A DNA stretch of 52,738 bases from the IMG/VR virus record IMGVR_UViG_3300029821_000006, positions 1-52,738 of that record; one strand, written 5' to 3'. Source of the stretch: a virus. Made by a program: the position numbers and the translations under genes. The notes under the pieces are model-generated. The model ran no database searches and was not told the DNA's origin. It was given only the letters and a program-made list of their open reading frames with translations. Of the stretch, positions 10,633 through 27,444 are shown in pieces (position 1 is the stretch's first letter; each line of letters opens with the position of its first letter).

Positions 10633-11324
10633 GTCGAGCTGACGTGCTTGTCAATACAACGTCTTTGGTAGAATTGTTTAAAATACGTATGTTATCGGTC
10701 AATATTTCGCCACCTAAACCAAAATTGATTCAAATACCGGTTACCGGGACAAGCGATGTTGTCGATATGTCGGAAGCGATCAGCGGCGATATTGAGTATG
10801 ACCAAAGAGAATTAACAGTTGTTTTTGAATATGTTGGAGCGAAAGAAAGCTTTCATGCGATGCATTCAAAAATATTAAATTTTTTACACGGCCGAAAGAT
10901 GCAAATTGTATTTTCGCAGGATTCTGGATTTTATTTCCTTGGCAGGATTTTGGTGGACGATTACAAGTGGGAAGTTTACGGCGGAACGCTGACGCTATCC
11001 GCCACTGTCGACCCGTATAAATACGAAACACAATCATCCATGGAGCCGTGGCTCTGGGATTCGTTCTCATTCGAGGACGGGATTATCAGGGATTATTACG
11101 ATATATCAGTTCCTGGAACCCTAACCATAACAGGACGTCGAAAAAGAGTTTGTCCGAAATTTATTTGCAGTGTAGCAATGACGGTTTCATATCTAGGTAA
11201 TACCTACAATCTGGCAATGGGTGAAAACATTGTACCTGATATTTTTCTGGGCGAAGGTGAACACTTGCTGGCGTTCGGGGGATCCGGTACCGTTGATGTC
11301 GATTATCGGGGGGGGAGCCTATGA
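10629..11324 (+). CDS. Distal tail protein (Dit)
   Basis: 231 aa directly after the tape-measure gene, with overlapping stop/start on both sides. Confidence 0.7.
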   Translation: MSRADVLVNTTSLVELFKIRMLSVNISPPKPKLIQIPVTGTSDVVDMSEAISGDIEYDQRELTVVFEYVGAKESFHAMHSKILNFLHGRKMQIVFSQDSGFYFLGRILVDDYKWEVYGGTLTLSATVDPYKYETQSSMEPWLWDSFSFEDGIIRDYYDISVPGTLTITGRRKRVCPKFICSVAMTVSYLGNTYNLAMGENIVPDIFLGEGEHLLAFGGSGTVDVDYRGGSL

Positions 11325-14300
11325 AAGCCAGCTATAAAACGCACATTGAAAACGAGGGTTGGAACATTGCGGTCGAGGACGGTAAAACGTCTGGGACCAC
11401 TGGCAAAGGATTAAGGCTTGAAGCCCTCATCATCGAATTGTTAGACAAAGGCGGTTTAGATATCGCCATCGAAGCGCAGGCCCACGTACAAAATGTTGGT
11501 TGGCAACCGCTTAAAACCGATGGCGAGATAATCGGGACAGTAGGCGAAAGTCTAAGGCTTGAAGCGGTACGGATTCGGTTAGTCGGAGCCGATGCTAAAA
11601 AATACAAAATTAAATACAGAGTTCACGTCGAGAATATCGGATGGCAAAACTGGAAAGTAGATGGCGAAACTGCCGGAACTGAAAGAGTCGCATTAAGAGC
11701 AGAAGCAATTGAAATCATGCTGGAACGCATCACAGAGGACGTTGTTGTAGTAGTACCTAATACACCCGCAGACGATCCGACACAAATAATTGTACCCCTG
11801 ACAGATCCTAACTCAGCGATACCACCCGAAAAAATCCTGTGTGCAAGTTACGCTACTCACGTTGAAAATTACGGATGGGGTGCAGATGTCACCGATGGCC
11901 GGTTGTCTGGTCGAATTGGTCAGGCGTTGCGATTAGAAGCAATCAGGATTGCATTAATTAATGTTGGAGCGTTAGATTTAGGTGTGGCCTACTCAACCCA
12001 CGTAGAGAATATCGGATGGCAACCCGAAGTTGCAAACGGTCAAACCGCAGGAACAACGGATCAGAGTTTGAGGTTAGAAGCCGTTAAAATGCACCTGACC
12101 GGAACCGATGCGGACAAGTATTCGATCTGGTACCGAGTCCATGTGCAAAACGAAGGATTCCAAGAGTGGTGTCGCGATGGCGATGTTGCCGGAACCGAGG
12201 GGCAATCATTACGAGCCGAAGCGATCCAGATCATTATAACTCTAAAATCCGAAAACATTATCCGGAACCCCGGCGATGCGCCTTTGATAGCGGTCAATTA
12301 CCGTTCACACATTCAAAATCTGGCATGGGCGCAATGGGTAAAGAATGGCGCTAAGTCCGGAACAACTGGTTTAGGACTTCGGATGGAAGCATTAGAAATA
12401 AATCTTTCATCGCTGGATGGCCTAGACATTGGCGTTTCATACCGGGTTCACGTTCAAAATATCGGTTGGCAACCGTGGTTTGCAGATGGTGCAACCTCCG
12501 GGACGGTCGGGCAAAGCCTGAGAATTGAAGCGGTCGAAATTGTTTTGACTGGAACTGATGCGGATAAATACACGGTGCAATATCGTGGACACCTTGAAAA
12601 TTCTGGCTGGACAAGCTGGTGTAAGAACGGCGCAACATTAGGCACAACAGGCGAAGAAATAAGGCTAGAAGCTGTGTCGATTGTACTGATAAAAAACGTA
12701 GACCTGAACGCAGTTGTCACAAACGAAATCAAAAACAAGGCACCAATCGTCCAGATCTGGGCATCTGATTTTCCCCGGGCTGATGTGTTATTGCACGACA
12801 TTCGAACGGACTACCGGCTGTTAAGTGCAAAAACGTCCGAAGGGATTAACAAATCCAGCGGGATGACATTCACGATTGACCCCACGCACCCGCACTATAG
12901 CAAATTGCGAAAAATGCACACGACTATATTGGTGTATGAGATTTATTCAAATACCCGAAAAGACATAATATTTGAGGGGCGGATTCTTAGCGATACCGAA
13001 GATATCTACAAAAAAAGAGTCGTCACCTGTGAGGGAGAATTAGGATATTTACTTGACAGCATCCAACGCCCTGCCCAGTATATCAATGTGACACCGGAAC
13101 AATGGTTGACGCAGGTATTGGATAACCACAATATGCAGGTAACATCCGATAAAAGACTTCATATGGGAATTTGTACAGTTCTGGGTGACGGTAGCGGGGT
13201 TAACATATCCACGAATTACCGAACGCACATCGAAAACCTATCCTGGCTATCATGGGTCAGAAACGGCGACGACAGCGGCACCACCGGTTCGGGATTGCGA
13301 ATGGAGGCGCTGGAACTAACGCTGGAAAATATCGGTAGCATGGATATTGGTGTGACCTACCGGGCACATCTGGCAGATACCGGGTGGCAGGAGTGGGTAG
13401 TTGATGGAGCCACGGCGGGAACGGTTGGATTAGCCGTTGAAATGCAAGCGGTTGAAATCAAACTGACCGGCGCTGATGCTGGATTATTTTCAATCCAATA
13501 CCGGGTTCATGTCGAAAATGAAGGCTGGCAGGATTGGAAACAGGATGGCGAAACCGCCGGGACAACGGGCCAATCACTGAGGGCTGAGTCAATCAGCATT
13601 ATTATTGTCTCGAAGGTCGATGGCACCAACGGAAAATTAAAAGACGGACTATTCCGGGAAAATGAATATGTCAATACGCTGGAATTAATCAAAACAACCA
13701 TGCTGGACACTCTGGGCGGAGTTATAGTGATTGAACGGATCGGCGGGATTAAGTTTCTGAATTACCTGGAAAACTACGGTTCGACAAACTCACAGCCTAT
13801 TAAGTTTGGCGTGAATTTGCTGGATTATTCCAAGATTACAGATGCAAGCGGGATCTATACTGCCCTGGTGCCGTATGGCAAGGAAATCGACGGGAAGAAA
13901 TTAACCATTGCAACAGCAAACAACGACTGTGATTATATTTACGATGAGTTAGCAGTTGCAGAATATGGTTGGATCTTTAAAGAATTTGAGTGGCCGGATA
14001 TCGACAGTCCTTCGGCGTTGATGTATGCGGCGAAATTAAAACTGGCCGGTGGGATTAAGCAGGGAATGTCCCTGGAACTGACCGCCATTGACCTAAGCGA
14101 AGTAAATATTGACATCCAAAAGTTTCAGGTTGGCGATATGGCAAGGAGTGTATCGAAACCGCATGACCTGGACACATTCCTATCAGTGAGTAAAAAAGAA
14201 CGAGATTTACTGAATCGCGGAAATGATCGGATTGTTTTAGGCGGCGTAACCCAATCCCTGACAGATCGGATCTCCGGGCCGCTGGGTGGTGGAATCATGG

Positions 14301-15469
14301 GGTTCGCCTTGACGACGGCCAACAGTGTTAAGAACATGGAGTATGTGGCGAATGAATTATCATTCCTAATCAAAATCACCGCTGAGACAGTAGAAGAACA
14401 AGGAACGACGATCAATGAGACAAAGCTGGAAATGGACGCATTTCATATTAGCTTGTCGGCATTGGAATCAAGGACAACGGCAACGGAGTCGTCTGTTAAT
14501 GAAACGGTGTTAGAAATGACAGCATTCGGGGCTAGTTTAACAGCGACACAAACAACAGTATCAAGTTTGGGAACACAAATAAATCAGGCTGGTTTAGACA
14601 TAAGTGCCTTGAGCGCCGGTCTGTCGGCAACACAGACAAGTTTGGACGGAAAAGTAAGTAAAGCGTCAATCATAGCGAGTATTAATGAAAGTGGGGAAAG
14701 CGGAGTTAAAATCAGCGCTGACAAAGTAAATATTACCGGCGTTGTAACATTTGCAAATCTGGCAACAGCTGGACAAACTGTTATAAATGGCGGGAATATA
14801 TCTGGTGGGACGTTAAATTTTGACAACATTACCGCTACGGGGTCTATTGTTTTAGATTCGTCATCCACATATGCTGGTATGGCATTTAGGCATACTCCTA
14901 GCGGCAAGTTTGGAGGCGTATACGCCAATTATTCGTATGGAGCAGTTTTATATGCTGGTTCTGGAGGCATCCAATTATCAACGACGGGAAGTGATGTAAC
15001 GGTTACTTATAGTTTAAAAGCAAATAATCTTATATATACAGCCACTAGTGGTACAGAGAAGGTATCAGATATTAAGTGGATATCATCAGGAGCATATGTC
15101 CAGGTAGGAACGGTCGCTGGGGCAAAAGGTGTTACGGTTTGGGATTCAGACAGGCGGTTAAAAACAAATATCAAAACCTCAACGTTGAATGCGACTGGTA
15201 AATTATCTATGGTTTCCACACGAGAGTTTAACTGGTTATCTGATTACCGCTTAGAAAAATGTGGTTTTATAGCCCAAGAAATTGAAAAAATATTAGGCAC
15301 AGAGTTTGTCTTAAAAGTAAAACAGGAAGACGGTTCATACAACTATCAGATTAAAGAATATCCATTTATACCATTATTAGTAAAAGCAGTACAAGAACTA
15401 AACGTAAAAGTCATGCGCCTTGAAAATGAGGTCGCGGTATTAAAACATAAAGGAGAACTACCATGTTAG
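11321..15469 (+). CDS. Tail-associated lysin-like / tail fibre protein (Tal) with 12 ChW repeats, coiled coil and C-terminal S74 intramolecular chaperone domain
   Basis: The ChW consensus Y+xHVxNxGWQxW...G..AGTxGxxLRLEAxxIxL recurs 12 times. The prophage-tail-endopeptidase-like core starts at about aa 480. C-terminal DSDRRLKTNI...GFIAQEIEKI is the S74 autoproteolytic motif. Confidence 0.85.
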   Translation: MKASYKTHIENEGWNIAVEDGKTSGTTGKGLRLEALIIELLDKGGLDIAIEAQAHVQNVGWQPLKTDGEIIGTVGESLRLEAVRIRLVGADAKKYKIKYRVHVENIGWQNWKVDGETAGTERVALRAEAIEIMLERITEDVVVVVPNTPADDPTQIIVPLTDPNSAIPPEKILCASYATHVENYGWGADVTDGRLSGRIGQALRLEAIRIALINVGALDLGVAYSTHVENIGWQPEVANGQTAGTTDQSLRLEAVKMHLTGTDADKYSIWYRVHVQNEGFQEWCRDGDVAGTEGQSLRAEAIQIIITLKSENIIRNPGDAPLIAVNYRSHIQNLAWAQWVKNGAKSGTTGLGLRMEALEINLSSLDGLDIGVSYRVHVQNIGWQPWFADGATSGTVGQSLRIEAVEIVLTGTDADKYTVQYRGHLENSGWTSWCKNGATLGTTGEEIRLEAVSIVLIKNVDLNAVVTNEIKNKAPIVQIWASDFPRADVLLHDIRTDYRLLSAKTSEGINKSSGMTFTIDPTHPHYSKLRKMHTTILVYEIYSNTRKDIIFEGRILSDTEDIYKKRVVTCEGELGYLLDSIQRPAQYINVTPEQWLTQVLDNHNMQVTSDKRLHMGICTVLGDGSGVNISTNYRTHIENLSWLSWVRNGDDSGTTGSGLRMEALELTLENIGSMDIGVTYRAHLADTGWQEWVVDGATAGTVGLAVEMQAVEIKLTGADAGLFSIQYRVHVENEGWQDWKQDGETAGTTGQSLRAESISIIIVSKVDGTNGKLKDGLFRENEYVNTLELIKTTMLDTLGGVIVIERIGGIKFLNYLENYGSTNSQPIKFGVNLLDYSKITDASGIYTALVPYGKEIDGKKLTIATANNDCDYIYDELAVAEYGWIFKEFEWPDIDSPSALMYAAKLKLAGGIKQGMSLELTAIDLSEVNIDIQKFQVGDMARSVSKPHDLDTFLSVSKKERDLLNRGNDRIVLGGVTQSLTDRISGPLGGGIMGFALTTANSVKNMEYVANELSFLIKITAETVEEQGTTINETKLEMDAFHISLSALESRTTATESSVNETVLEMTAFGASLTATQTTVSSLGTQINQAGLDISALSAGLSATQTSLDGKVSKASIIASINESGESGVKISADKVNITGVVTFANLATAGQTVINGGNISGGTLNFDNITATGSIVLDSSSTYAGMAFRHTPSGKFGGVYANYSYGAVLYAGSGGIQLSTTGSDVTVTYSLKANNLIYTATSGTEKVSDIKWISSGAYVQVGTVAGAKGVTVWDSDRRLKTNIKTSTLNATGKLSMVSTREFNWLSDYRLEKCGFIAQEIEKILGTEFVLKVKQEDGSYNYQIKEYPFIPLLVKAVQELNVKVMRLENEVAVLKHKGELPC
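11330..12690 (+). repeat. Nine tandem ChW (clostridial hydrophobic W) coding repeats, arranged as three triplets
   Basis: Read in the translation: triplets separated by a short Pro-rich or other linker. Confidence 0.8.
13211..13610 (+). repeat. Fourth ChW triplet inserted inside the Tal core domain
   Basis: NYRTHIENLSWLSW..., YRAHLADTGWQEW..., YRVHVENEGWQDW... Confidence 0.8.
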
Positions 15470-15708
15470 AAATAATAAAAACAACGACGTTCACAGGAAC
15501 TGCAAAAATTGGGGAAGTAGCAGCAAAGGTGTTTAGCGCCACGATAAATACCGCCAATCCAGAGGATATGTCGTTCAATCATTATGTTGTGAAATATGAT
15601 CTATATAAGGCAAACCGGGCAGCTATCGGGGCTGAACAGTCAGCATTTGAAGACGCGGCCTATACATTCCAAGATCAGCTGATTGCTGAAAAGGCGGTAC
15701 AGGCATGA
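15463..15708 (+). CDS. Hypothetical tail-module protein (81 aa)
   Basis: ORF coupled to the end of Tal (7-nt overlap). Confidence 0.6.
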   Translation: MLEIIKTTTFTGTAKIGEVAAKVFSATINTANPEDMSFNHYVVKYDLYKANRAAIGAEQSAFEDAAYTFQDQLIAEKAVQA

Positions 15709-16031
15709 TTATTACAAATGGTCAAATGGTCAACCATCTAAATAATATTCAGATGTTATCAAAGGTGGAATTACCGGTTCGAGTGGTACATGCGATTAAG
15801 AAAAACTATCGTAAGTTGGCGACTGAATACGCTGACTATGATGAGTCATTAAAAGAATTAAAGGCAAAATATCCAGTCCTTAAAGAAGACAATCCAGATC
15901 TTTTAGAATTGTTAAAACTTGAGATGGAGGTTGATGTGTACACGATCCCAGAATCAATATTTACATCATCAGACTTCAATCTCACAATAGAACAGTTCGA
16001 AATGTTGGAGTTCATGATCGAAACCGAATAG
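15705..16031 (+). CDS. Hypothetical tail-module protein (108 aa)
   Basis: ATGA overlap with the upstream ORF. Confidence 0.6.
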   Translation: MIITNGQMVNHLNNIQMLSKVELPVRVVHAIKKNYRKLATEYADYDESLKELKAKYPVLKEDNPDLLELLKLEMEVDVYTIPESIFTSSDFNLTIEQFEMLEFMIETE

Positions 16032-16043
16032 GAGGTATTTAAA

Positions 16044-18338
16044 ATGACAGCATTAGAGCAATATATTGCAGATGTCAAAGCCGCCACTAAAGGCGAGCCG
16101 ATGAAGGTCGCGCTCATGGGCGTGGCATCTGAGGTTCAAAAGCAAAGCATTGCGGTCGGGGAACAGATCGCAACAGTTGGTCCGGCTGTAACAGCAGCTA
16201 CTCAAAAAGCAGCAGATGCAGCGGCATCAGCTGACGATGCCGCTGATTCTGAGGTTGTAGCGACCACACAAGCAGGGATTGCGACAACAAAAGCAACTGA
16301 GGCTGCAGATGCAAAACTGGCGGCTGAAAATGCAAGAGCGGCAGCGGATGCAGCAAAGATTGCGGCGGAATTATCAGAAGCATATGCTGAAGACTCTGAA
16401 ATTAACAGCAAAGCATCAGAAGAAGCGGCCGATGCGTCGAAGGTCTCCGCGTCCGGATCGGCAAGCGTGGCCACAACCAAGGCCGGGGAATCATCATCCA
16501 GCGCGGCGGCGGCCCTGGCATCGGAAGAAGCGGCGGCACTGGCTGAAACACAAACACTAGCCTATAAAGACGCGACCGTTGCAGCGGTTGGCGCCACAAC
16601 CGATATGGCCGAGATCATCGAATCCAGAAAAGGAAAGGTAACTTTAGGCGAAAAGATAGGGGAAATTGATTCGCAATTGGCAGATATTGGATATTTAGGA
16701 GTTGCGAGTAAATATGGGGTGGATAGTACAATAGGAACGTCAGATGCAACAACATTACTAAATACATATTTCGCATCATTAAAAGCAAAAGGGCTAAAAT
16801 ATGCGTATTTTGATAAACCACACACCTATAAAGTAAATGGGGTTTTAAGCGGTGTGAGAGACTTAATTTTGATAGGAAATGCAAAAATCGAAAGTAGCAA
16901 TCTTGCTAATTATTTTATTAATATTTGCCAAACATTGACTGAATACAACGGAAAATACAATAAATCACCGTTGCGCAAAAATCAATTTTCTCAATTTAAT
17001 ACGGCATTAGGATCAAGTAGAAATATAAATATAACGATTTGGGGAGATAGTGTATCGACAGGCGGTTCTGATTGCTTAAATGTTGGTTATAATACAATCG
17101 ATGCAGGCGCATTAGAACAGGGCTCGAATTCAATAACCACAGGCGATTCGTATTATCAACGATTGATGGATATGATCACATCGCAGTTCAAGGATAATAT
17201 ATTTAATTTTTACAACCGATCATCCGGCGGCACTGTAATTCAAGATTACGGGTCAGATAAAACATTTGATTCGGTAACGAAATCATGGGTAGCGCACGTT
17301 AAAGACACAGCACCCGATTTATTAATAATCGGGTGGGGAATGAATCAAACAACAATTGCGAGTGCCAAGGCGTTTAAATATTATCTCAACGCTGTATTAA
17401 CGTATATTAATGCAAATTTTAGTCCAGTTCCGAGTATTGCATTGTTAACGTCCCCGCGGCCAAGTTATTCACTTGAGGATACGTGGGGGGCATTAGAAAT
17501 TCAGCAGGCGGTTGATATGTCGGCACATACAATCCGGACATTCGGGGAAGAAAAAGGATGTTATATCATTGATGTAAATAAAATTTCAAATCAAAAAAGA
17601 ACAGGGTTTATGTTTGAAAATCCCCGTATGAAAGCAATATCTGAAGATTACGCAACAACCGATGCGTTTATAACGGGAAACCATACTAAAGTTGGCTATA
17701 CCTATACAATTCAAACAGCTAATACAGAAATAATAATACCGATCAATTCAAAATCGTTTGTTGTGGCGTTTGATTTAAAATTCAGTGGATTCCCTGATGG
17801 TGTTGAAAATTTATCAATCAACTATAATTATTTAACTGGGTACATCCGAAATTGTCTGATGGTAAAACCGCTATCTGGTGGTGTTGCTGCGGTAGATAGT
17901 TTTGCTAATATTGGCGATGCTGCGCATTATACAACTGCAACAAAATCATATCTACCTGGGATATCGTGGAATGATGGCACATATCGCCGGATAACATTTG
18001 AAAAACGTGATGATATTATCGACGTATTTATTGACGGGGTAAGAATATTGCGTGATCGAGTACAGATAAACAATACTCCATCTGAAATTAGATTGAATAA
18101 AAATGGAGGAAGCGTTGGATTGATTACAATTCAAAACATTGTTTTATACAAAGGAGAATACAGGCTATTTTTACCAACATTAACGGAATCCGAAATGTTT
18201 GGAGATCATGTCAATTTAGACTATGCAACTAAAAAACCATATGGGGGAAATGGCGTAAATCATCCGTCGAGTATAGGATTAGAAGAAACTTACGTTCCCG
18301 CAATGAGGGAATTTGTGGAAGATTTAAGCAGGCTTTAA
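16044..18338 (+). CDS. Tail fibre / receptor-modifying protein with Ala-rich coiled-coil stalk and SGNH/GDSL-hydrolase-like domain
   Basis: 764 aa. Block I ITIWGDSVSTGG, a GG block NRSSGGTV, block III IIGWGMNQT and a C-terminal GVNHPS. The N-terminal ~190 aa is Ala/Glu/Ser-rich. Confidence 0.7.
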   Translation: MTALEQYIADVKAATKGEPMKVALMGVASEVQKQSIAVGEQIATVGPAVTAATQKAADAAASADDAADSEVVATTQAGIATTKATEAADAKLAAENARAAADAAKIAAELSEAYAEDSEINSKASEEAADASKVSASGSASVATTKAGESSSSAAAALASEEAAALAETQTLAYKDATVAAVGATTDMAEIIESRKGKVTLGEKIGEIDSQLADIGYLGVASKYGVDSTIGTSDATTLLNTYFASLKAKGLKYAYFDKPHTYKVNGVLSGVRDLILIGNAKIESSNLANYFINICQTLTEYNGKYNKSPLRKNQFSQFNTALGSSRNINITIWGDSVSTGGSDCLNVGYNTIDAGALEQGSNSITTGDSYYQRLMDMITSQFKDNIFNFYNRSSGGTVIQDYGSDKTFDSVTKSWVAHVKDTAPDLLIIGWGMNQTTIASAKAFKYYLNAVLTYINANFSPVPSIALLTSPRPSYSLEDTWGALEIQQAVDMSAHTIRTFGEEKGCYIIDVNKISNQKRTGFMFENPRMKAISEDYATTDAFITGNHTKVGYTYTIQTANTEIIIPINSKSFVVAFDLKFSGFPDGVENLSINYNYLTGYIRNCLMVKPLSGGVAAVDSFANIGDAAHYTTATKSYLPGISWNDGTYRRITFEKRDDIIDVFIDGVRILRDRVQINNTPSEIRLNKNGGSVGLITIQNIVLYKGEYRLFLPTLTESEMFGDHVNLDYATKKPYGGNGVNHPSSIGLEETYVPAMREFVEDLSRL

Positions 18339-18391
18339 TTGGGAATCGGACGATATTGCGAACTAAAAATGATTAGAAGAAATGGCCATGA

Positions 18392-18415
18392 GGCACCTTA
18401 ACTGGTGTCTTTTTT
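18392..18415 (+). terminator. Rho-independent terminator (GGCACC-ttaact-GGTGTC + T6)
   Basis: Read directly. Sequence family shared with 2175-2197. Confidence 0.65.
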
Positions 18416-18443
18416 AATGCGAAAAATCAGAAAGGGGCCGGTA

Positions 18444-18743
18444 ATGAATGGAAGCATAGATATTACAGTTGTGGCAAGTTTAATCTGCACTATAGGAGGT
18501 TTCGTGGTGGCGTGGTTAATGTTCGGAAGAACTAAAACAAAAGATGATAAGGCCGAAGGTGCTAGCATTGCGACGATCACATCCGATATGGGTTACATAA
18601 AGTCAAGTGTTGATGGGATTGATAAGAAATTAGAAAAACAGGCCGACAAGCATATAGAATTATTGGAGCGGGTCTGTGACGTGGAAGCATCGGCAAAACA
18701 AGCGCATAAGCGCATTGATAGTTTAGAAGGAGAAATAAAATGA
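18444..18743 (+). CDS. Holin-associated membrane protein (N-terminal TM + coiled coil, XhlA-like topology)
   Basis: ATG 18444 after AAAGGGG. The track start 18405 lies inside the terminator. TM segment ITVVASLICTIGGFVVAWLMF. Confidence 0.6.
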   Translation: MNGSIDITVVASLICTIGGFVVAWLMFGRTKTKDDKAEGASIATITSDMGYIKSSVDGIDKKLEKQADKHIELLERVCDVEASAKQAHKRIDSLEGEIK

Positions 18744-19120
18744 AACAAAAAGTAATTAGCTTTATTGATGGTTTAAGTTGTATGTCGGTTCGGGAGTGGG
18801 CTCAGATAATTGTTTTGGCGCTTGTTGTGATCAATGGAGCACTAACCATATTCGGGGTTAACCCGATTTCGGTGTCCGAGGATTTCCTGTATATCGCCAT
18901 TTCAGGCGCATTGGTGATTATCGTTCCATTCTATAACAAATGGAAAAACTGGAACGTCACCCCGGAAGCGGTAACTGCTCAAAATGTTTTGGATTTAATG
19001 AAAATGGGTTTTGCCTCAAAGGAACAAATTGAACAATTTATTAAGGACTTAAAAGCACAATCGGTTAAGGAAGAATGGTCGAATCCAACTTATCCAGCTG
19101 AAGATAGTAAAACCGAGTAA
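18740..19120 (+). CDS. Holin (phi-LC3 / Phage_holin_1-like)
   Basis: 126 aa, two TM segments, motif FYNKWKNWNVT, directly upstream of the endolysin. Confidence 0.75.
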   Translation: MKQKVISFIDGLSCMSVREWAQIIVLALVVINGALTIFGVNPISVSEDFLYIAISGALVIIVPFYNKWKNWNVTPEAVTAQNVLDLMKMGFASKEQIEQFIKDLKAQSVKEEWSNPTYPAEDSKTE

Positions 19121-19136
19121 GAACGGAGGTAGCAAT

Positions 19137-20651
19137 ATGCTGCAAATCGAAGGAATTGACGTTTCCCAGCACCAAGGCGATATCCAATGGCCACGCGTAA
19201 AGAATACAAATAAGAAGTTTTCAGGCGTCCGGATTGGATGGGGTGAAGCCAGGAATGCATCGGGCGGGGAGCTTGATGCAAAAGCCCTGGTAAATTTGGA
19301 TGGTTGCATTGCTAATGGTATCTCACCGCTGCCTTTTATATACTCATATGCTCAAACCGCAGATGAAGCAAGGATGGAAGCAAATTTTATTAAAACCATC
19401 TTATCCCGATATCCGCGTTCTACCTTTGCCTATCCAATCGCATTTGATATTGAGGATCAGCAGTATCAGGGAAACATCGATATTAATCCAATCATTGATG
19501 CATTTTGCACAGAAATCCATAATTCCGGGTATAAAGTCATTACTTATACTTCATTAGATTGGTATCAGAATAGAGTTAATGACACAAACAAAGGGAAATG
19601 GTTCACGTGGTTGGCTCAATGGGATGTCGATAAGCCAGAATTTTTACCAAGTATTTGGCAGTATTCAGACAAAGGATCCGTTGACGGGATTAGCGGGAAT
19701 GTTGATTTAGATATCTGCTATCAGGATTATGTCAATATCGATAACCCGTTTCCAACAAAAGCGGTTGAAGTGGTCGTTACTCAGCCATCAAATCCGTCAC
19801 AGGAAATCATTGCGCCAGTGGATCCATTAAGTGTCCAGGTGTTTTCTATTGTTGAAGAGCAAAGAGTTTTAAGACTTTTAAATTATGGAGACATTGAAGC
19901 GGATGGCCAGGCCGGTGATTTGACAAGATCCGCCAGAAATAATGCAAGAAGAGGTTATGGACTAGCTGAAAATGGAGAAGCAGGAATAGAACTGGAACGA
20001 TGTTTAAGAGGACAGCTCATGTCAGTGCAGGCCAGGCTAAATGAATTAGGTTATGTATGTGATATTGATGGTCGCCTTGGAGATGTCGGTACTCAAACAA
20101 CGGATCGAGTATTAAGCTTCCAAAAGGACAGAAGTCTGACAATTGATGGCATTATCGGAACAAACACATTTACGGCGTTGTTCGCGATCACGAATGCACC
20201 GGTCGCAGTAACGGCACCAGTAGTTACTTTACCTGAAGGAATGGCTTCAAAAAATTTTAGTTGGTACGAGTTGGCTTGTGGATGCATTAAGGGAGATCCG
20301 ACAAGCGGTTGCAACGGATATCCCGAAACAAATTATGGACAGATCATAGCGCAGCAGCTAATTGATAAACTGCAGCAGCTCCGGGACTATGTCGGGGCAA
20401 TTGTCATAACATGCGGTATCCGTTGCCCGGAGAACAATGCATTCTGGGGTGGCGTCTGGGATTCACTCCACATGCTGGGGGAAGCCGTAGACTGTTATTG
20501 CCCAGGAATGGATATCATCGAATTTGCGAGGATCGCTTGGCAGGTATTTGGCATTGCGGTTAGAGTATACCCATCACAGGAGTTTGCTCATTTGGAGTTA
20601 TCAGGTCTTGGGGGAGTGTATAACCAGGAAACAGGGAAGTTTATATACTGA
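19137..20651 (+). CDS. Endolysin: GH25 muramidase + PG_binding_1 repeat(s) + M15A (Peptidase_M15_3) peptidase
   Basis: IEGIDVSQHQGDIQW (GH25); LNELGYVCDIDGRLG...IDGIIGTNTFTAL (PG binding); ITCGIRCPENN...SLHMLGEAVD...FAHLE (M15 zinc ligands H/D/H). Confidence 0.9.
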   Translation: MLQIEGIDVSQHQGDIQWPRVKNTNKKFSGVRIGWGEARNASGGELDAKALVNLDGCIANGISPLPFIYSYAQTADEARMEANFIKTILSRYPRSTFAYPIAFDIEDQQYQGNIDINPIIDAFCTEIHNSGYKVITYTSLDWYQNRVNDTNKGKWFTWLAQWDVDKPEFLPSIWQYSDKGSVDGISGNVDLDICYQDYVNIDNPFPTKAVEVVVTQPSNPSQEIIAPVDPLSVQVFSIVEEQRVLRLLNYGDIEADGQAGDLTRSARNNARRGYGLAENGEAGIELERCLRGQLMSVQARLNELGYVCDIDGRLGDVGTQTTDRVLSFQKDRSLTIDGIIGTNTFTALFAITNAPVAVTAPVVTLPEGMASKNFSWYELACGCIKGDPTSGCNGYPETNYGQIIAQQLIDKLQQLRDYVGAIVITCGIRCPENNAFWGGVWDSLHMLGEAVDCYCPGMDIIEFARIAWQVFGIAVRVYPSQEFAHLELSGLGGVYNQETGKFIY

Positions 20652-20655
20652 AATT

Positions 20656-20681
20656 GGCCACCTCCGGGTGGTCTTTTTTTT
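20656..20681 (+). terminator. Rho-independent terminator ending the late operon
   Basis: GGCCACC-tccg-GGTGGTC followed by T8. Confidence 0.8.
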
Positions 20682-20701
20682 ATGCCTTTTTTCATTATCG
20701 A

Positions 20702-20730
20702 TTGTGATATTCTGGCAATTATGTTAGAAT
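20702..20730 (+). promoter_or_regulatory. Sigma-A-type promoter for the tyrosine recombinase gene
   Basis: TTGTGA, 17 nt, then TAGAAT with a TG extension. A ~110-nt leader with two hairpins follows (GCAAAGG/CCTTTGC at 20746-20767 and AAGTAGGG/CCTTACTT). Confidence 0.5.
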
Positions 20731-20843
20731 ATATGGGCAAGATAGCAAAGGCTTAATTACCCTTTGCGACAAGTAGGGCTTCCGAACCTTACTTCTTGCA
20801 GTAACATTAATTCGGAGAAAATACTATCGGAGGTGTTATTTTT

Positions 20844-21851
20844 ATGCACGAAAACGAAATTACTATCAAGATTATTGCAGAGGTCACAGACCGGTTCCCA
20901 GAGGTGGATGGAAATGTTTTAAGGGATATTATCGAAAGAGAGCTATACCAGTACGAGATCCAGCCAAAGTCCACGGCCCTGGTGGTTCAGTCGGACATGA
21001 ATGAAATGATTATGCTGTACCTGGCCACAAAGAAGCTGGACGGCCTGAGCGACAAGACCCTTAAAAATTATGCTCTGCATTTAAGACGATTCTCAAATTA
21101 TTTTCAAAAGAACGTGGCTGACATTACGGCCATGGATATCCGGATGTTTCTGGCGGATCTGATTAAGTATAAAAATCTGAAAAACTCGACATTGGAAAAT
21201 GAGAAATCAATTCTCAAGAGCTTCTTTGTTTGGTTGGAAAATGAGGATTATATCGTCAAGAGTCCTACCCGAAAGATCAAGTCGACAAAGGTGGAGAAGC
21301 GGGTTAGGAAATCATTGTCTGCTGAGGAACTGGAATTGATGCGGGATGCCTGCAGCACAAACCGGCAACGGGCGTTACTGGAATTTACCTTCAGTACCGG
21401 TGGCCGGCTGTCAGAAATCACCCAAGTCAATATCCAGGACATCAACTGGCATGAGAGATCAGTGAATATCATCGGAAAAGGGAATAAAGAAAGAACGATC
21501 TTCTTTTCTCCAAAAGCCAAGATTTATTTGCAGAAATATTTCAATGAGCGGAAAACATTCCCGATCGTGGACGATGCGCTGTTCGTATCCCAGAAAAAGC
21601 CGTATGGACGGTTAGGGAATCGAGCTGTAGAAAAAGAGATTGGGAAGATTGCTGTACAGGCCGGATTCGATAAGGTTGTATTTCCGCATTTACTCAGACA
21701 CACATTCGCCACCCTGGGTCATAAGGCGGGAATGCCGCTCAACGTGCTGCAGGAACTGATGGGACATTCAAACCCCGGGACGACTCAGATATATGCGGCA
21801 CTGGATAACGAGAGTGTGAAAGCAGAGTACCGGAAACGGATAATTCAATAA
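20844..21851 (+). CDS. Tyrosine recombinase, XerC/XerD-like
   Basis: Catalytic set visible: TGGRLSE (R), GKGNKER (K), HLLRHTFAT (HxxR), GHSNPGTTQIY (H..Y). Confidence 0.9.
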   Translation: MHENEITIKIIAEVTDRFPEVDGNVLRDIIERELYQYEIQPKSTALVVQSDMNEMIMLYLATKKLDGLSDKTLKNYALHLRRFSNYFQKNVADITAMDIRMFLADLIKYKNLKNSTLENEKSILKSFFVWLENEDYIVKSPTRKIKSTKVEKRVRKSLSAEELELMRDACSTNRQRALLEFTFSTGGRLSEITQVNIQDINWHERSVNIIGKGNKERTIFFSPKAKIYLQKYFNERKTFPIVDDALFVSQKKPYGRLGNRAVEKEIGKIAVQAGFDKVVFPHLLRHTFATLGHKAGMPLNVLQELMGHSNPGTTQIYAALDNESVKAEYRKRIIQ

Positions 21852-21908
21852 AAAAAGAGGGCCATCTCTTGATTGGGCGGTGGCCTTTATTATTTTATCT
21901 GTATTAAT

Positions 21909-21965
21909 GGCAATATATTGTCTTTTGTAAACAATATATTACCTTTTTATAACATAATATTACCT
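21909..21965. repeat. 13-9-13 palindrome GGCAATATATTGT/ACAATATATTACC plus a third half-site AACATAATATTACC
   Basis: Read directly. It overlaps a possible promoter (TTGTAA, 17 nt, TATAAC). The third box resembles the XerD arm of dif in reverse complement (TTATGTTAT). Confidence 0.6.
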
Positions 21966-22102
21966 ATCGCATGTAGTATAATTAAAGAGAATTAAAGCAA
22001 ATGCACTCAATCAGGGGGAATGACAATGTCAACTCCTCTGTTTTGTTTCTGACATTATCTCACAATGTTGGTTCATTTGATAATGCGATAGGGGGCTTTA
22101 AA

Positions 22103-22624
22103 ATGAGAAAATCATCAATAGACATAAATGGGCTAAAACTCGACGAATTTAAAAAAATTGAATTAGGAATCAGTAAAATAACTCGATATTTTTTATGCAA
22201 ACAATCAATGTCTCAAAAGAAATTGCAAAAACTTGCTTATTATTCTGTTGCTTGGCATTATGCGCTTTTTGATAAACCGTTTGCTGGAGTTGATTTACCT
22301 TTTGAAGCGTGGGTGCACGGTCCGGTATCAAGAAATTTATACAGCAAATACAAAGGTTTTAAATTTAATAATATACCTAAGATAAAAACAGAACCTGATT
22401 TCAGTAAATATAAAAATGATGAGCTTGAGATATTGGATTTTGTTTGGGAAAATTATGGAGAATTTACAGCAAATCAACTTGAAACTTTAACGCATACCGA
22501 AGACCCTTGGCAGAAGAAAAGAAGGGGTTATGGGGAGCTGGAATCATCGTCTGAAGTAATAGGGGTTGAGGATATGAAAAAATATTATAGGAAATTCATT
22601 AAGAACGATGGCGAAATCAACTGA
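22103..22624 (+). CDS. Panacea-domain (DUF4065, SocA/GepA-like) antitoxin-like protein
   Basis: KLQKLAYYSVAWHYALFDKPF...FEAWVHGPVSRNLYSKY. ATG 22103 follows GGGGG. The track start 22001 has no RBS. Confidence 0.75.
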   Translation: MRKSSIDINGLKLDEFKKIELGISKITRYFLCKQSMSQKKLQKLAYYSVAWHYALFDKPFAGVDLPFEAWVHGPVSRNLYSKYKGFKFNNIPKIKTEPDFSKYKNDELEILDFVWENYGEFTANQLETLTHTEDPWQKKRRGYGELESSSEVIGVEDMKKYYRKFIKNDGEIN

Positions 22625-22952
22625 CTCGATCAATATTACAGCGGCAACAGAATTTATTGACGAAATATCGTTTAGTTTAAAACACTTAAATTTTGGGAAT
22701 TGGGGCCTCGATAAACTTAAAAGTCATAGAAATGAGAAAGACTTTAATAACTTTTTAAGAAGATATTCCGGAAAGTCTGTGAAATATTTTCAAAGCACGG
22801 TTCAACCATGCAAAGACGACAAGCAGGATACTTTTGAAGGGCAGCATGTCCACCATTACAAAATCAATGAGAAGTTTAGAATACATGGGTTTTTCCTTGG
22901 CAATAGATTTAAAATAATTCGCATTGATCCTAACCATGAGTTTCATAAATAA
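22608..22952 (+). CDS. Unclassified 114-aa basic/His-rich protein, putative toxin partner
   Basis: 17-nt overlap with the upstream gene. C-terminus HVHHYKINEKFRIHGFFLGNRFKIIRIDPNHEFHK. No family recognised. Confidence 0.65.
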   Translation: MAKSTDSINITAATEFIDEISFSLKHLNFGNWGLDKLKSHRNEKDFNNFLRRYSGKSVKYFQSTVQPCKDDKQDTFEGQHVHHYKINEKFRIHGFFLGNRFKIIRIDPNHEFHK

Positions 22953-22957
22953 TATGA

Positions 22958-22986
22958 ACCAGCCAAACCGGGCTGGTCTTTTTTTA
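22958..22986 (+). terminator. Rho-independent terminator
   Basis: ACCAGCC-aaaccg-GGCTGGT followed by a T-run. Confidence 0.8.
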
Positions 22987-23000
22987 TTCATAATTTTACA

Positions 23001-23029
23001 TTGACCTCAACCAAGAACGGGTGTACCAT
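23001..23029 (+). promoter_or_regulatory. Candidate promoter overlapped by inverted repeat AGAACG(N17)CGTTCT
   Basis: TTGACC, 17 nt, TACCAT. The inverted repeat spans the -10 region. Confidence 0.4.
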
Positions 23030-23056
23030 AAAACAAACGTTCTCTGAGGTGGTAAA

Positions 23057-23305
23057 ATGAAAGTATTAAAAAAATTTGTCTCAGTTGTGGCAAAATTTGA
23101 TGAAGACGGCATAACCCCGTTGCGTGTTATCTGGCCAGATGGCCGGAGTTTTGAAATTGATCGAGTTATTGACGTCCGACCCGGCGCATCAATACCGGCT
23201 GGTGGGCTCGGGATAAAGTATACTTGTAAGATCGCAGGCAGGGAACGGCTGTTATTTTATGAAGAACCAAGGTGGTTTGTGGAAGCGAAAAGCCCAGGTG
23301 TTTAG
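23057..23305 (+). CDS. Conserved small hypothetical protein (82 aa)
   Basis: GAGGTGG RBS; ...PLRVIWPDGRSFEIDRVIDVRPGAS...KYTCKIAGRERLLFYEEPRWFVE. Confidence 0.65.
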   Translation: MKVLKKFVSVVAKFDEDGITPLRVIWPDGRSFEIDRVIDVRPGASIPAGGLGIKYTCKIAGRERLLFYEEPRWFVEAKSPGV

Positions 23306-23317
23306 CCTGGGCTTTTT
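23288..23317. terminator. Bidirectional terminator shared by convergent genes
   Basis: AAAGCCCAGG-tgtttag-CCTGGGCTTT, with A/T runs on both sides. Confidence 0.75.
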
Positions 23318-23325
23318 AAGTAGTT

Positions 23326-23484
23326 TTAGATATCTTGATAGGCTTTTAAATATTCCATAATCCGACATAGATCATCAACCCGGCTAGAATCCTGTTCAGA
23401 CAACCATAATACAGTTCCAACTTCCGAGGGGCTTAATTCCATCGACCCAATAACTGCAGTTATTTTTGATAGGTTTTCTTCCAT
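23326..23484 (-). CDS. Small helical hypothetical protein (52 aa)
   Basis: AAGGAG 7 nt upstream of ATG on the minus strand; MEENLSKITAVIGSMELSPSEVGTVLWLSEQDSSRVDDLCRIMEYLKAYQDI. Confidence 0.45.
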   Translation of the reverse strand: MEENLSKITAVIGSMELSPSEVGTVLWLSEQDSSRVDDLCRIMEYLKAYQDI

Positions 23485-23588
23485 AATATACTCCTTTAAA
23501 TCATTTATAAAACATTTTATCTTATGCTGTTTAGGTAATTAAAGCACTTTTTTAGGCGATAATCAATCTATTTGAATAATATTTACTG

Positions 23589-23618
23589 TTGAATTTTATT
23601 CATCAATAGGCGTATAAT
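23589..23618 (+). promoter_or_regulatory. Sigma-A-type promoter for the LRR-ChW gene
   Basis: TTGAAT, 18 nt, TATAAT. Confidence 0.6.
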
Positions 23619-23656
23619 CGTTATCATAAGATATAAATGTGAAGGAGGATGAAATT

Positions 23657-24997
23657 GTGAGGGAAAGTATTCGAAAATGTTTTTATATGTTGGCGGTATT
23701 GTCTATACTGTTTGGGATAGCATCGCCTGGTGTTATGGCCTATCATACCGATAATAATTTTACATATGAAATTGTTGGTGGCGGTGTTTCTGTTACTGAA
23801 TACTCTGGCTACAGTAAAGATGTAGTGATCCCAGATATATTGGGCGGGAGAAAAGTTATAGCTATTGGCGATTCAGCGTTTTCATATCGCGATGATTTAA
23901 CAAGCATTGTGATGCCTGACAGTATAGTTTCTATTGGCGAGGAAGCTTTTTTAAAGTGTCGCAGATTAACAGAATTAAAAATACCTGAAGGAGTAACATT
24001 TATTGATGAATGTGCGTTTGATCATTGCGACAAATTGACCAGCATTACACTTCCGGAAGGTATAACGTCTATTAGTTCTTATACATTTACGCAGTGTAGC
24101 GGGCTAACTAGCATCACAATCCCCAATGGCGTTACTTCCATTGAGTGGGCCGCTTTTTCATACTGCACGGGGCTGAATAGTATAATAATCCCGGAGAGCG
24201 TTACTTCTATTAGCGGTCTTGTATTTAAGGAACACAATGAAAGTTTTGTTATTTATGGTCTTGACGGCTCTTATGCAGAAACTTATGCAAATGAACAAGG
24301 TATACAGTTTTCGGTTATTAAAGATGACCAAATAGCCAAAGCAGTGCATGATCAAATCAATATACTACCGGCTGTGGGTAGCATAAAATTGACCGATAAA
24401 GTGGCTGTAACCGAAGCGCGAACAGCCTATAATAAATTAACGGCCGTGCAAAAAACTTTAGTTAATAACCTAGATATATTGAAAGAATTGGAAAAAAGAA
24501 TTGCTGATCTGGAAGCAGGTGAAAATACTCAAGGACCAATCATTTCCTATCAGACCCACGTTCAAAATATTGGCTGGCAAGAAGATGTCCTACAGGGGGG
24601 AATGTCTGGAACAGAAGGCATGGGATATAGACTTGAAAGTATCCGCATCAGTTTTGAAGATGATGCTAATTTCGATTTAGGCGTGTCTTATTCCACCCAC
24701 GTAGAGAACATCGGATGGCAATCAGAAGTTGCGAACGGCCGAACAGCGGGTACGACCGATCAGGGGTTAAGACTGGAAGCAATTAAAATCAGGCTGACTG
24801 GGGCTGATTCTGATAAATTCGACATCTACTATCAAGTCCATGCGCAAAATTTCGGGTGGCTGGATTGGGCCAAGAATGGAGATAACGCCGGAACTGCAGG
24901 CTTTGGTTTTCGATTGGAAGCAATCAGAATCTCGATTGTACCAAAAGGAGATCCGGCGCCAGGTGCAACATCGAGACCTTTTGTTCAAATGCAATAA
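23657..24997 (+). CDS. Secreted cell-surface protein: signal peptide + BspA-type leucine-rich repeats + three ChW repeats
   Basis: GTG 23657 lies 8 nt after GGAGG. Signal peptide CFYMLAVLSILFGIASPGVMA. LRR units ...LTSITIPNGVTSI... C-terminal ChW units YQTHVQNIGWQ / YSTHVENIGWQ / YQVHAQNFGWLDW. Confidence 0.8.
   Translation: MRESIRKCFYMLAVLSILFGIASPGVMAYHTDNNFTYEIVGGGVSVTEYSGYSKDVVIPDILGGRKVIAIGDSAFSYRDDLTSIVMPDSIVSIGEEAFLKCRRLTELKIPEGVTFIDECAFDHCDKLTSITLPEGITSISSYTFTQCSGLTSITIPNGVTSIEWAAFSYCTGLNSIIIPESVTSISGLVFKEHNESFVIYGLDGSYAETYANEQGIQFSVIKDDQIAKAVHDQINILPAVGSIKLTDKVAVTEARTAYNKLTAVQKTLVNNLDILKELEKRIADLEAGENTQGPIISYQTHVQNIGWQEDVLQGGMSGTEGMGYRLESIRISFEDDANFDLGVSYSTHVENIGWQSEVANGRTAGTTDQGLRLEAIKIRLTGADSDKFDIYYQVHAQNFGWLDWAKNGDNAGTAGFGFRLEAIRISIVPKGDPAPGATSRPFVQMQ
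24541..24940 (+). repeat. ChW triplet of the accessory surface protein
   Basis: The middle unit is near-identical at protein level, and in part at DNA level (acccacgtagagaaYatcggatggcaa), to Tal unit 5 at about 11990-12130. Confidence 0.8.
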
Positions 24998-25039
24998 AAA
25001 TTACAGGTGTTTAGCCTATGTTGATTACTTCAAAACAAA

Positions 25040-25077
25040 TTAACCAGTCCCGTGGTTTTACGCTCGGGGCTGGTTAA
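25040..25077. other. Imperfect 12-nt inverted repeat (TTAACCAGTCCC / GGGGCTGGTTAA, 14-nt spacer): attP candidate or T-less terminator
   Basis: Read directly. 11 of 12 positions are complementary. No T-run follows. Confidence 0.35.
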
Positions 25078-25214
25078 TAATTGACTGATTCATTAACGAA
25101 AATACGCCATATAAGCACAGGTTTTCGATAAAGCGCCCATATTTGCGTTTTAACCAGTTTTAGCTCGCACAGGTAATAAGTGACCTGTAAAAACCATATA
25201 TTAAGTCATTTTCG

Positions 25215-25243
25215 TTGGTTATTTGGTGGTTTTATGGTATAAT
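25215..25243 (+). promoter_or_regulatory. Orphan promoter-like element with no downstream ORF
   Basis: TTGGTT, 17 nt, TGgTATAAT (extended -10). Confidence 0.35.
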
Positions 25244-25340
25244 TCAATTAATCGTTCCAACTAGGCCGCTGGTTCATGCATAAATGAGGTTGGCCATAAT
25301 ATTGGGGGTCGCATTTCAATGACGTGGCCCTATTTTTGCG

Positions 25341-25369
25341 AAAAGAAAAGGCTCGGGGAAACCCGAGCC
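25341..25369 (-). terminator. Terminator of the immA-int operon
   Basis: GGCTCGGG-gaaa-CCCGAGCC, with a T-run on the minus strand. Confidence 0.75.
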
Positions 25370-25524
25370 ATAATTATTGAAACAGTTAACTGTCTATGAT
25401 TTATTTTTAGAAGGGATTATCCATCGCCGTTATACCATGTAAACATAAAATGCAAAGTCATGTGTTTTATGCGATACCACTGGGATTCGTGCGCTAAAAT
25501 TAAAATTTCGAAAAATCAGCAATT

Positions 25525-27444
25525 TCAAGATTTTTGTCCCTTGATGTAGTAACTTACCACTTTGCTGTTTTCTCTCTGTACTGGAACGATCTCACCTTGG
25601 TCAACCATTGCATGTAGTGTCTGGTAAACTGCATGGCTGGGATGACCAGTAGCGCGAATGAAATCAACGCCCTTCAATTTTCCATGTTCCCCGATAAAAC
25701 TTAATATCTTTTCTTTGCTCTCATATTGGCATATTTCGGCGCTCGTTGGCATTTTATTAGCACCCGGTTCCCATTCGAATTGGCTTACGAGTCCGTTAGT
25801 AAATGTTATTTCGACGGGCAGACCATTTTTAATAACAATTTTGCTGATTAAAGCATCTATTATTTGGCGCAAATTGCCAGTTCCGGAAGTTTTAACTAAA
25901 TAGTCATAATTAAAAGGTTGTCCTTTTGACATAACTGTCTTTTCGAATAAAACCATCCCCGCTTTAAATGACAAGTTGTCGAATTTTGCGGTTCCATCAA
26001 TCGTTTTGAGCTCATCTATTTGTGCTCCTTTTAGCTCCGTTATTTTTCTGTCGAGATCATTCTTCTTCAACATAAAATCTTTTCCGCTCATCGATTCAGG
26101 CGAGAACAAATAAAGTTCTTCCAGGCGCAAAATAGCAGTTTCATATTTTTTCAATTCATTCTCGATTTTATTCGACCTTTTCAGGGCGGGATCGTTGTTT
26201 CCACTTTTCGTTTTGTGCTTGATTTTAGGTTTCCCTTGATCTAAAAGCTGCCCAATTATGCGGTCGATCGTGCCACTTGAGATTGACTTGAGACGCATGA
26301 ATGGCCATCCGTCGGTTAATAAATTTTCTATTGTGCCGGATCTCATACTTGGCTTAATCAACTCAGATAGCCTACGAACGTTAGATAGATAGTTAAACAC
26401 AATCGGAACTAACAGGCCATCTCCAATGCACCCCTTGCACGAATTTATGCTGCCATAGCCGGAACAAGAGTAGGTCGCCGGACGTAAGCCGTTTGATTTT
26501 TTCCTCGCTCCTGTGCTGGCATTGTACGGCCTTAAGCAGTCTCCGCAAATCAATTTTCTCGAGAAAATGTTTATCTGAGCGTTTTCTCGATGGTATTGGC
26601 TATCGCCGTTTCGATTTGATTTAAGGAGATTCTGGACTCGGCTAAATTGTTCTTCGTCAATGATGGCGGGATGGCTATTTTCTATAACAATCCAGTCGTT
26701 CTCTTTTTTCATTTTTCTTGAAGTGTAGTCCCGATAATTGTATCGGTATGTCCCTTTATAAAAAGGGTTTTTTAGCATGCTAACAATTGTGCTATGATCC
26801 CATTCGCCGCCACGCTTTGTTTTTATACCTTTATCCGCGAGGCTGGTCGCGACATCATTGGACGACTTGGTTTCTTCATATAGGTTAAAGATGTATCTTA
26901 CGATTTCGGCTTCATGTTCGTCAATTACCGGGAATTTACATTTACTTTCGATTAGATATCCCATCGGCGGTTGGGCGCCATTATAAAGCCCTTTTGAAGC
27001 TCTATCGATCATCACGGATAATACTCTTTCAGCAGTCATCTTCCTTTCAAGTTCTGCAAAAATTAAAGTGATCCGCAGCATCGCTTCGCCCATGGGGGAA
27101 CTGGTATCAAATTGTTCATTCTTGGATATAAAAGCGGTATCATACTTTTTTATTTCCTCATACATTTCACAAAAGTCAATTAGGTTTCGACTGATCCGGT
27201 CAAGCTTCCAGACCAGAATATGAGAAAACTCACGGTTTCGGACCCGGGTCATCATTTCCTGGTATTTAGGTCGGTCTGTGTTTTTGGCAGAGAACCCGGC
27301 ATCTTCAAAGATCTCATAGTCATCGATGTTCAGAGCGTACCTGGCATAGTTTACCAGATCATCGCGCTGCAGGGGAAGACTGTCTTTGTCTGCCTGCATG
27401 GCCGTAGAGACCCGGATGTAGAGTGCTGCTTTTTTATTGGACAT
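25525..27444 (-). CDS. Large serine recombinase (phage integrase)
   Basis: AALYIRVSTAMQ...LPLQ catalytic Ser motif, recombinase domain, Cys cluster CGDCLRPY...CSGYGSINSCKGC, coiled coil. ATG 27444 follows GAAGGTG. Confidence 0.9.
   Translation of the reverse strand: MSNKKAALYIRVSTAMQADKDSLPLQRDDLVNYARYALNIDDYEIFEDAGFSAKNTDRPKYQEMMTRVRNREFSHILVWKLDRISRNLIDFCEMYEEIKKYDTAFISKNEQFDTSSPMGEAMLRITLIFAELERKMTAERVLSVMIDRASKGLYNGAQPPMGYLIESKCKFPVIDEHEAEIVRYIFNLYEETKSSNDVATSLADKGIKTKRGGEWDHSTIVSMLKNPFYKGTYRYNYRDYTSRKMKKENDWIVIENSHPAIIDEEQFSRVQNLLKSNRNGDSQYHRENAQINIFSRKLICGDCLRPYNASTGARKKSNGLRPATYSCSGYGSINSCKGCIGDGLLVPIVFNYLSNVRRLSELIKPSMRSGTIENLLTDGWPFMRLKSISSGTIDRIIGQLLDQGKPKIKHKTKSGNNDPALKRSNKIENELKKYETAILRLEELYLFSPESMSGKDFMLKKNDLDRKITELKGAQIDELKTIDGTAKFDNLSFKAGMVLFEKTVMSKGQPFNYDYLVKTSGTGNLRQIIDALISKIVIKNGLPVEITFTNGLVSQFEWEPGANKMPTSAEICQYESKEKILSFIGEHGKLKGVDFIRATGHPSHAVYQTLHAMVDQGEIVPVQRENSKVVSYYIKGQKS

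Follow-up and report, generated by a model that had tools for sequence, protein, structure and literature searches.

The stretch of DNA analysed here, referred to as the window, comprises 52,738 nucleotides of a virus record from IMG/VR (IMGVR_UViG_3300029821_000006) and harbours on its + strand two overlapping genes, panA and panT. The panA gene (22103..22624) starts with an ATG at 22103 and encodes a standalone Panacea-domain protein of 173 residues, and panT (22608..22952) codes for a 114-residue predicted toxin of the RelE/YafQ fold (BECR) that belongs to the MAG6450 family. Both ORFs lie where the first-pass annotation had placed them, share 17 nt as it had reported, and contain the peptides it had quoted. 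A Shine-Dalgarno sequence, AGGGGG (22090..22095, + strand), is located 7 nt 5' of the panA ATG; that of panT is weak, and the 17-nt overlap suggests translational coupling. The start of panA varies among public gene calls, being placed at 22001 by metagenome callers (207 residues) or at about 22208 by NCBI (138 residues, contig PHBV01000283.1). Position 22103 has the best support as start, since the AGGGGG precedes it by 7 nt and since the homologues require the helix that precedes KKLQKL; the partner PanAs of other loci align through this helix, which rules out the 138-residue call. With regard to panT, the existence of relatives with 71% and 68% identity and of 84 clusters of relatives indicates that the 114-residue ORF is a real gene.

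The window ends in an exact 127-nt direct repeat (1-127 and 52612-52738) and therefore represents a complete temperate phage of about 52.6 kb, assembled as a circle. Structural genes occupy positions 62 to 18300, approximately, and are followed by an SPP1-type holin (18740-19120), a GH25/M15 endolysin (19137-20651), an integrase (20844-21851), the panA-panT pair (22103-22952), an ORF of 82 residues (23057-23305) with a strong terminator of its own (23287-23317, 13-bp stem), and a 452-residue protein (23639-24997) that carries leucine-rich repeats of the BspA type (LRR_5) along with three ChW repeats. The 82-residue ORF, which every copy of this phage has next to the pair, has no match in Pfam, PHROGs, NCBIfam or PADLOC. 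The BspA-LRR/ChW protein is a surface or cell-wall-binding protein, probably encoded by a lysogenic-conversion gene, and ChW is also found in a phage tail protein (11321-15469). An integrated copy of the phage (L023; ENA ERZ27239242 k141_213769) is 99.99% identical to window positions 12608-25431, beyond which (L023 12824) it continues into host genes coding for an ABC transporter, a GDPD and a TetR protein; no tRNA gene is present at this attachment junction. The departure from phage sequence at this point places the attachment site near 25431, so that the pair, downstream of the integrase, sits in the cargo region between int and att. Its GC content is 33%, compared with 42% for the phage, and several of its homologues are located just after phage lysis genes. 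The proposal that the pair is carried as a moron in a prophage accessory island is thus supported. NCBI files the contig under the MAG 'Chloroflexi bacterium HGW-Chloroflexi-5'; the SPP1-type holin, the ChW domains and the GH25/M15 endolysin suggest a Clostridia/Firmicutes host, and for this reason the contig was probably mis-binned.

The pair is preceded by an AT-rich spacer of 251 nt (21852..22102, + strand) that separates it from the integrase and constitutes a candidate regulatory region. It contains an inverted repeat with 16-nt arms (21906-21921 and 21931-21946, 88% complementary), as well as a 21-nt direct repeat (21911-21952), each copy of which carries the palindrome CAATATATTG. These repeats may not be taken for attP, a possibility that we rejected because the integrated copy is collinear with the phage on through to window position 25431. 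The segment 21909-21965 had been described as a palindrome-bearing promoter region: the palindromic repeats are there, but the scan located no convincing sigma-70 promoter upstream of panA. It returned 11 promoter-like sites versus 6.3 +/- 2.0 in shuffled sequences, and the best-scoring one overlaps the panA start codon. As the number of sites does not stand out clearly from background and the best of them covers the start codon, a promoter in the spacer upstream of panA is no more than plausible. In the leader (22013-22052), a second AGGGGG is followed by an ORF of eight codons (ATG at 22026, MSTPLFCF, stop at 22050-22052) out of frame with panA, which may encode a leader peptide or be a chance occurrence. 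An Rfam scan of positions 20600-25600 gave nothing credible. Downstream, the two-gene unit is closed by an intrinsic terminator (22958..22986, + strand), made of a hairpin (22958-22977) with a 7-bp stem including five GC pairs and a 6-nt loop, then a T run, as had been noticed at first sight.

The panA product matches the Pfam family PF13274 (SocA_Panacea) over the entire profile (positions 1-113 of 113, residues 41-137) with E=1e-20 and 75.1 bits (cutoff 25.7), which bears out its by-eye assignment to the Panacea proteins, and it also matches PHROG 1281 (E=5e-37). The Pfam search revealed no helix-turn-helix or other N-terminal domain. Following the Panacea domain, and outside the Pfam model, a conserved C-terminal tail with the pattern PW..R.G...S..I...M..YY is present, and the protein shares 48% identity with PanA of Lentibacillus. 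SocA, the founding Panacea protein, is the antitoxin of the type VI SocAB system of Caulobacter, and PanA resembles it in possessing this domain. It could then be asked whether PanA acts like SocA, as a proteolytic adaptor handing the toxin to ClpXP rather than as a stoichiometric inhibitor. A weak match to the NCBIfam model SocA_antitoxin (E=4e-9) goes in this direction, but its 36.4 bits are far below the equivalog cutoff of 190, PanT is unrelated to SocB, and validated PanAT pairs form stable complexes (PMC8832971). We consequently rejected membership of SocAB, and consider an adaptor role of this kind very improbable.

The 114-residue partner had been regarded as unclassifiable and perhaps as a new toxin domain. 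It passes the NCBIfam model NF046006 (MAG6450 family) with 53.5 bits (cutoff 40), residues 21-114 aligning with positions 2-103 of the 103-position profile. This model takes its name from MAG6450, an uncharacterised conserved hypothetical protein of Mycoplasma agalactiae, and NCBI likewise names the Lentibacillus homologue 'MAG6450 family protein'. An exhaustive profile search of 1.84 billion representative proteins retrieved 84 relatives at E<=1e-3, nearly all 100-150 residues long, and relatives score 41-107 bits with NF046006. Across 67 aligned relatives, His83 and His110 are invariant, and Asp74, Arg91, His93, Asp107 and Pro108 are conserved in at least 90% of the sequences, giving the family signature H[YF]-x6-FRIHG-x10-RIDPNH. 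The position of His93 is occupied by Phe in the homologue of Streptococcus phage Javan59, which reduces the core triad to His83, Arg91 and His110. These three residues are the candidate catalytic residues of PanT, by a putative mapping onto YafQ.

The AlphaFold2 model of PanT built from the family alignment (mean pLDDT 86.6, pTM 0.75) displays helices within residues 29-64 and strands at 82-85, 91-97 and 100-107. When this model was compared with the PDB using Foldseek, nearly all of the top 50 hits belonged to the RelE/ParE superfamily (YoeB, YafQ, RelE, HigB, the RelE domain of Cami1, and ParE), and two chains of the insecticidal toxin Txp40 made up the remainder. Probabilities reached 1.00 and target-normalised TM-scores 0.67 (0.64 for the top hit), with E-values of only about 1e-2; an earlier model derived from a shallow alignment retrieved the same families. 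By sequence, neither PanT nor its 67 relatives matched Pfam, the RelE, YafQ and ParE families included, and PanT had no match in a search of PDB sequences and nothing useful in PHROGs. The BFVD fold search was uninformative. Since hhalign detected no similarity between the family profile and the single YafQ and YoeB sequences, the link of PanT to RelE rests on its fold and on profiles of PADLOC. Among the latter, window PanT matches NsnC (PDLC03891) at positions 240-280 of 284 through its last 40 residues (E=1.9e-4), and 58 of the 67 family members match this profile, with a best E-value of 2.7e-10; the CARF7--CARF_RelE profile is matched by 19 of the 67 (best E-value 6.3e-6). The fold search and these profile matches agree, and on this basis PanT has, as judged from model and sequence comparison, a BECR fold of the RelE/YafQ type and a conserved set of His, Arg and His residues. 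The impression that its C-terminus was loosely RelE/YoeB-like was therefore well founded, whereas the suggestion of an unclassifiable protein no longer holds, PanT having a named family, a RelE/ParE (BECR) fold, and sequence kin in NsnC and CARF-RelE.

The similarities with RelE, YoeB, YafQ and HigB extend to several features. PanT is predicted to comprise N-terminal helices followed by an antiparallel sheet, it is basic, its conserved His and Arg residues being placed on the predicted sheet and a further His close to the C-terminus, and its gene lies downstream of that of the antitoxin. It differs from these toxins in lacking a sequence-level match to their Pfam or PDB members, in having an N-terminus about 25 residues longer, and in being associated with a Panacea antitoxin instead of RelB, YefM, DinJ or HigA. 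With NsnC and CARF-RelE/Cami1, PanT shares the C-terminal 40 residues that match the profiles, including the RIDPNH motif, and Cami1 is also among its structural matches. Unlike these effectors, PanT stands alone, without an inactive PIN or CARF domain, and would be controlled by a separate antitoxin protein. NsnC's C-terminal domain, PB-BECR1, has been described as a BECR RNase domain that resembles YafQ and bears an H-R-H triad (Li et al. 2025, PMC12065111). The conserved His83, Arg91 and His110 of the PanT family agree with this triad. We rejected membership of the Menshen (NsnABC) system, as the match is confined to positions 240-280 of the 284 of NsnC, with no N-terminal inactive PIN domain, and as NsnA (ParB-DUF262) and NsnB (ABC ATPase) are absent from the neighbourhood, made up of the integrase, the small ORF and the LRR/ChW protein.

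The RelE/ParE fold also includes gyrase poisons that are not RNases, and in RelE-type RNases a histidine is typically found near the C-terminus (H87 in YafQ, H83 in YoeB). PanT could thus conceivably act in the manner of ParE, by poisoning DNA gyrase and not by cleaving mRNA: the ParE structures 6n90, 6xrw and 8c26 appear among the lower Foldseek hits, and at this level RelE and ParE folds are indistinguishable. The conserved His/Arg/His set and the near-C-terminal His are nevertheless typical of RelE-type RNases, and the relatives recognisable by sequence, NsnC PB-BECR1 and CARF-RelE, are RNase effectors, so that gyrase poisoning appears highly unlikely.

The association of panT with panA is strict. 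Wherever DNA upstream of a MAG6450-family member could be examined, i.e. in 14 of 14 independent loci, the gene immediately upstream and in the same orientation is a Panacea gene, whether in bacteria, an archaeon or a phage. Besides the window, these loci comprise metagenome contigs (L001/2, L003, L004, L005/6 and L007/8), genome assemblies (L009, L011, L014, L015 and L022), Lentibacillus saliphilus (L012), Streptococcus phage Javan59 (L018), in which the toxin ORF is unannotated, and the archaeon Methanimicrococcus hongohii (L019). Where scored, the upstream genes match PF13274 with E-values of about 1e-20, and the spacing between the two genes ranges from a 17-nt overlap to a 20-nt gap. By the FlaGs criterion of Kurata et al. 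2022, with the partner at less than 100 nt, the two-gene architecture is conserved and the flanking genes differ among loci. The partner PanAs align from end to end, C-terminal tail included, with a mean identity of 45%, and pairwise identities of PanA and PanT co-vary (r=0.70, for 55 pairs that are not independent). As far as these comparisons indicate, panA and panT are inherited as a unit, and their presence side by side in 14 of 14 loci makes of them a conserved module. The initial description of a coupled, autonomous unit is supported, and the coupling of the two genes is tight.

The module is rare. Two scans of 185,579 species genomes with a degenerate DNA pattern retrieved eight true loci in total, in addition to three chance matches (L010, L013 and L020). 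A tblastn search with the window toxin gave no match in 50,697 phage and 72,556 plasmid records; with the Lentibacillus homologue, the same phage records yielded a single match, Javan59, and the plasmid records none. A search for related loci with the Javan59 protein as query found no relatives. The Javan59 ORF (L018 4001-4348; MK448817.1 40415-40762) is located downstream of the lysin and directly follows a PF13274 gene annotated as 'putative prophage protein (ps3)'. In Methanimicrococcus hongohii, a methanogenic archaeon (NZ_CP131059.1), the pair was recognised by a match at L019 5438-5521 on the minus strand. A further copy of a MAG6450-family gene occurs in a Candidatus Saccharimonas MAG (L021), and the same protein adjoins PanA in L022. 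The copies in the methanogenic archaeon and in the Candidatus Saccharimonas MAG indicate, from sequence distribution, that this rare module of PanA and a MAG6450-family protein has spread widely by horizontal transfer.

The pair had been presented as a candidate new type. However, Kurata et al. predicted 1,268 PanAT pairs and already catalogued combinations of Panacea with a RelE-like 'mRNase' (Kurata et al. 2022, PMC8832971, Dataset S1), which removes this claim to novelty. Their toxin clusters T14, T28 and T59 have HHpred or CDD matches to RelE, ParE, HigB, YoeB or YafQ (PMC8832971). The largest PanT cluster, T1 (pT1 is mentioned 217 times), bears the label 'mRNase', has the gene order A|T, and counts among its members a pair of Mycoplasma agalactiae and one of Helicobacter whose genes overlap by 17 nt (PMC8832971). 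The module described here shares with the PanAT pairs, and T1 in particular, a standalone Panacea antitoxin encoded upstream (A|T), tight or overlapping spacing, and a frequent phage or prophage location. In addition, T1 contains an M. agalactiae pair and NF046006 is named after MAG6450 of M. agalactiae. When T1 toxins were assayed in E. coli, the members from Salmonella phage Emek and from E. coli MOD1 were not toxic, and that of Clostridium cadaveris was toxic but was not neutralised by its PanA, so that none of the three pairs tested was validated as toxin-antitoxin (PMC8832971).

These results raise the question of whether PanT is a toxin in its host at all, or a harmless partner of PanA that binds RNA or the ribosome, or a regulator of PanA, in which case the pair would not be a toxin-antitoxin system. 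Two of the three T1 members tested in E. coli being non-toxic and the third not neutralised are in keeping with this proposal, as is PanA, which has no DNA-binding domain and therefore gives no evident sign of classical autoregulation. A comparison with the Emek pair (L017; PanA 14764-15213, PanT orf161 15152-15637) sheds light on the matter. Emek PanA is 35% identical to window PanA over its full length, and Emek PanT is a remote homologue that hhalign aligns collinearly to the profile of the family (probability 78%, E=1.8e-5) but reaches only 13.6 bits with NF046006, below the cutoff of 40. At the positions of Arg91, His93 and His110, it carries Ala, Val and Phe, whereas these residues are kept, and strongly conserved, in the family of the window protein. 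Emek PanT may thus be a catalytically dead relative, and the lack of equivalents of Arg91, His93 and His110 would make its negative toxicity assay explicable. Furthermore, the domains of NsnC and CARF-RelE that are akin to PanT serve as effector nucleases, and the C. cadaveris member was indeed toxic. We therefore regard a non-toxic PanT as unlikely, although less so than the ParE-like and SocA-like modes of action, and all three readings are less likely than a toxin-antitoxin pair. From the same alignments, the MAG6450 family is probably either that part of T1 in which the catalytic residues are intact or a closely related sister group.

The most probable explanation, which we hold with reasonable though far from complete confidence, is that a temperate phage carries at this locus, as accessory cargo, a PanA-PanT cassette, i.e. 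a type II toxin-antitoxin pair composed of a ribosome-dependent, mRNA-cleaving BECR toxin and a standalone Panacea antitoxin. Panacea antitoxins have been found to assemble into complexes with the cognate toxins, and standalone Panacea proteins neutralise directly (PMC8832971, PMC10440598). From known RelE-family toxins and this work on PanAT pairs (PMC8832971, PMC10440598), we infer the mechanism and, with it, that PanT is a toxic, ribosome-dependent RNase neutralised by PanA, as well as the biological role of the pair. Free PanT would enter the ribosomal A site and cleave mRNA by means of the putative catalytic residues His83, Arg91 and His110, thereby stopping translation. PanA would bind PanT directly and hold it inactive in type II fashion, with either its Panacea core or its conserved tail at the C-terminus as the putative contact surface. 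Owing to the weakness of its ribosome-binding site and to its overlap of 17 nt with panA, panT would be translated in dependence on panA and at a lower level. Loss or inactivation of PanA would then set PanT free, possible triggers being loss of the element, stress or superinfection.

The same components could serve mainly in abortive infection or superinfection exclusion, PanA sensing a component of an incoming phage and, once triggered, releasing or activating the RNase, with the result that translation is shut down in the infected lysogen. This proposal, which differs from the toxin-antitoxin pair only in role and trigger, is compatible with all data, and we consider it possible but clearly less probable. 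Several observations are in favour of it, namely, the location of the pair in the accessory region between integrase and att site, the difference in GC content from the rest of the phage noted above, the recurrence of homologues beside phage lysis genes and in Javan59, and a toxin domain also found in NsnC (Menshen) and CARF-RelE, the effectors of two defence systems; in addition, Ernits et al. 2023 propose Panacea as a sensor. On the other hand, the pair as such matches no PADLOC system, the effector domain alone doing so, and neither NsnA/NsnB nor CRISPR genes are found nearby. In its most specific form, still more tentative, PanA would be a sensor rather than a passive antidote, and the cassette a phage-borne abortive-infection switch equipped with the RNase domain of Menshen NsnC and CARF-RelE/Cami1. 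If this were true, one effector domain would shuttle between toxin-antitoxin modules, Menshen and type III CRISPR-signalling immunity, temperate phages would deploy it against rival phages, and the failed heterologous toxicity-neutralisation tests of related T1 pairs would be explained.

Returning to the toxin-antitoxin pair as the preferred explanation, the advance is incremental, as neither the type of system nor the kind of pairing is new to the literature: Panacea antitoxins with RelE-fold toxins are a known combination, of which the present locus is a further example and not a new toxin domain. For the MAG6450 family, formerly only a name, the analysis nevertheless predicts a fold, proposes His83/Arg91/His110 as candidate active site and reveals a strict partnership with Panacea proteins. 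The family probably belongs to T1, the largest cluster of predicted PanTs, and the comparison with Emek offers a testable reason for the earlier failures with this cluster. Finally, the kinship of PanT with the RNase domains of NsnC and CARF-RelE is another instance of an effector shared by toxin-antitoxin modules and anti-phage systems.
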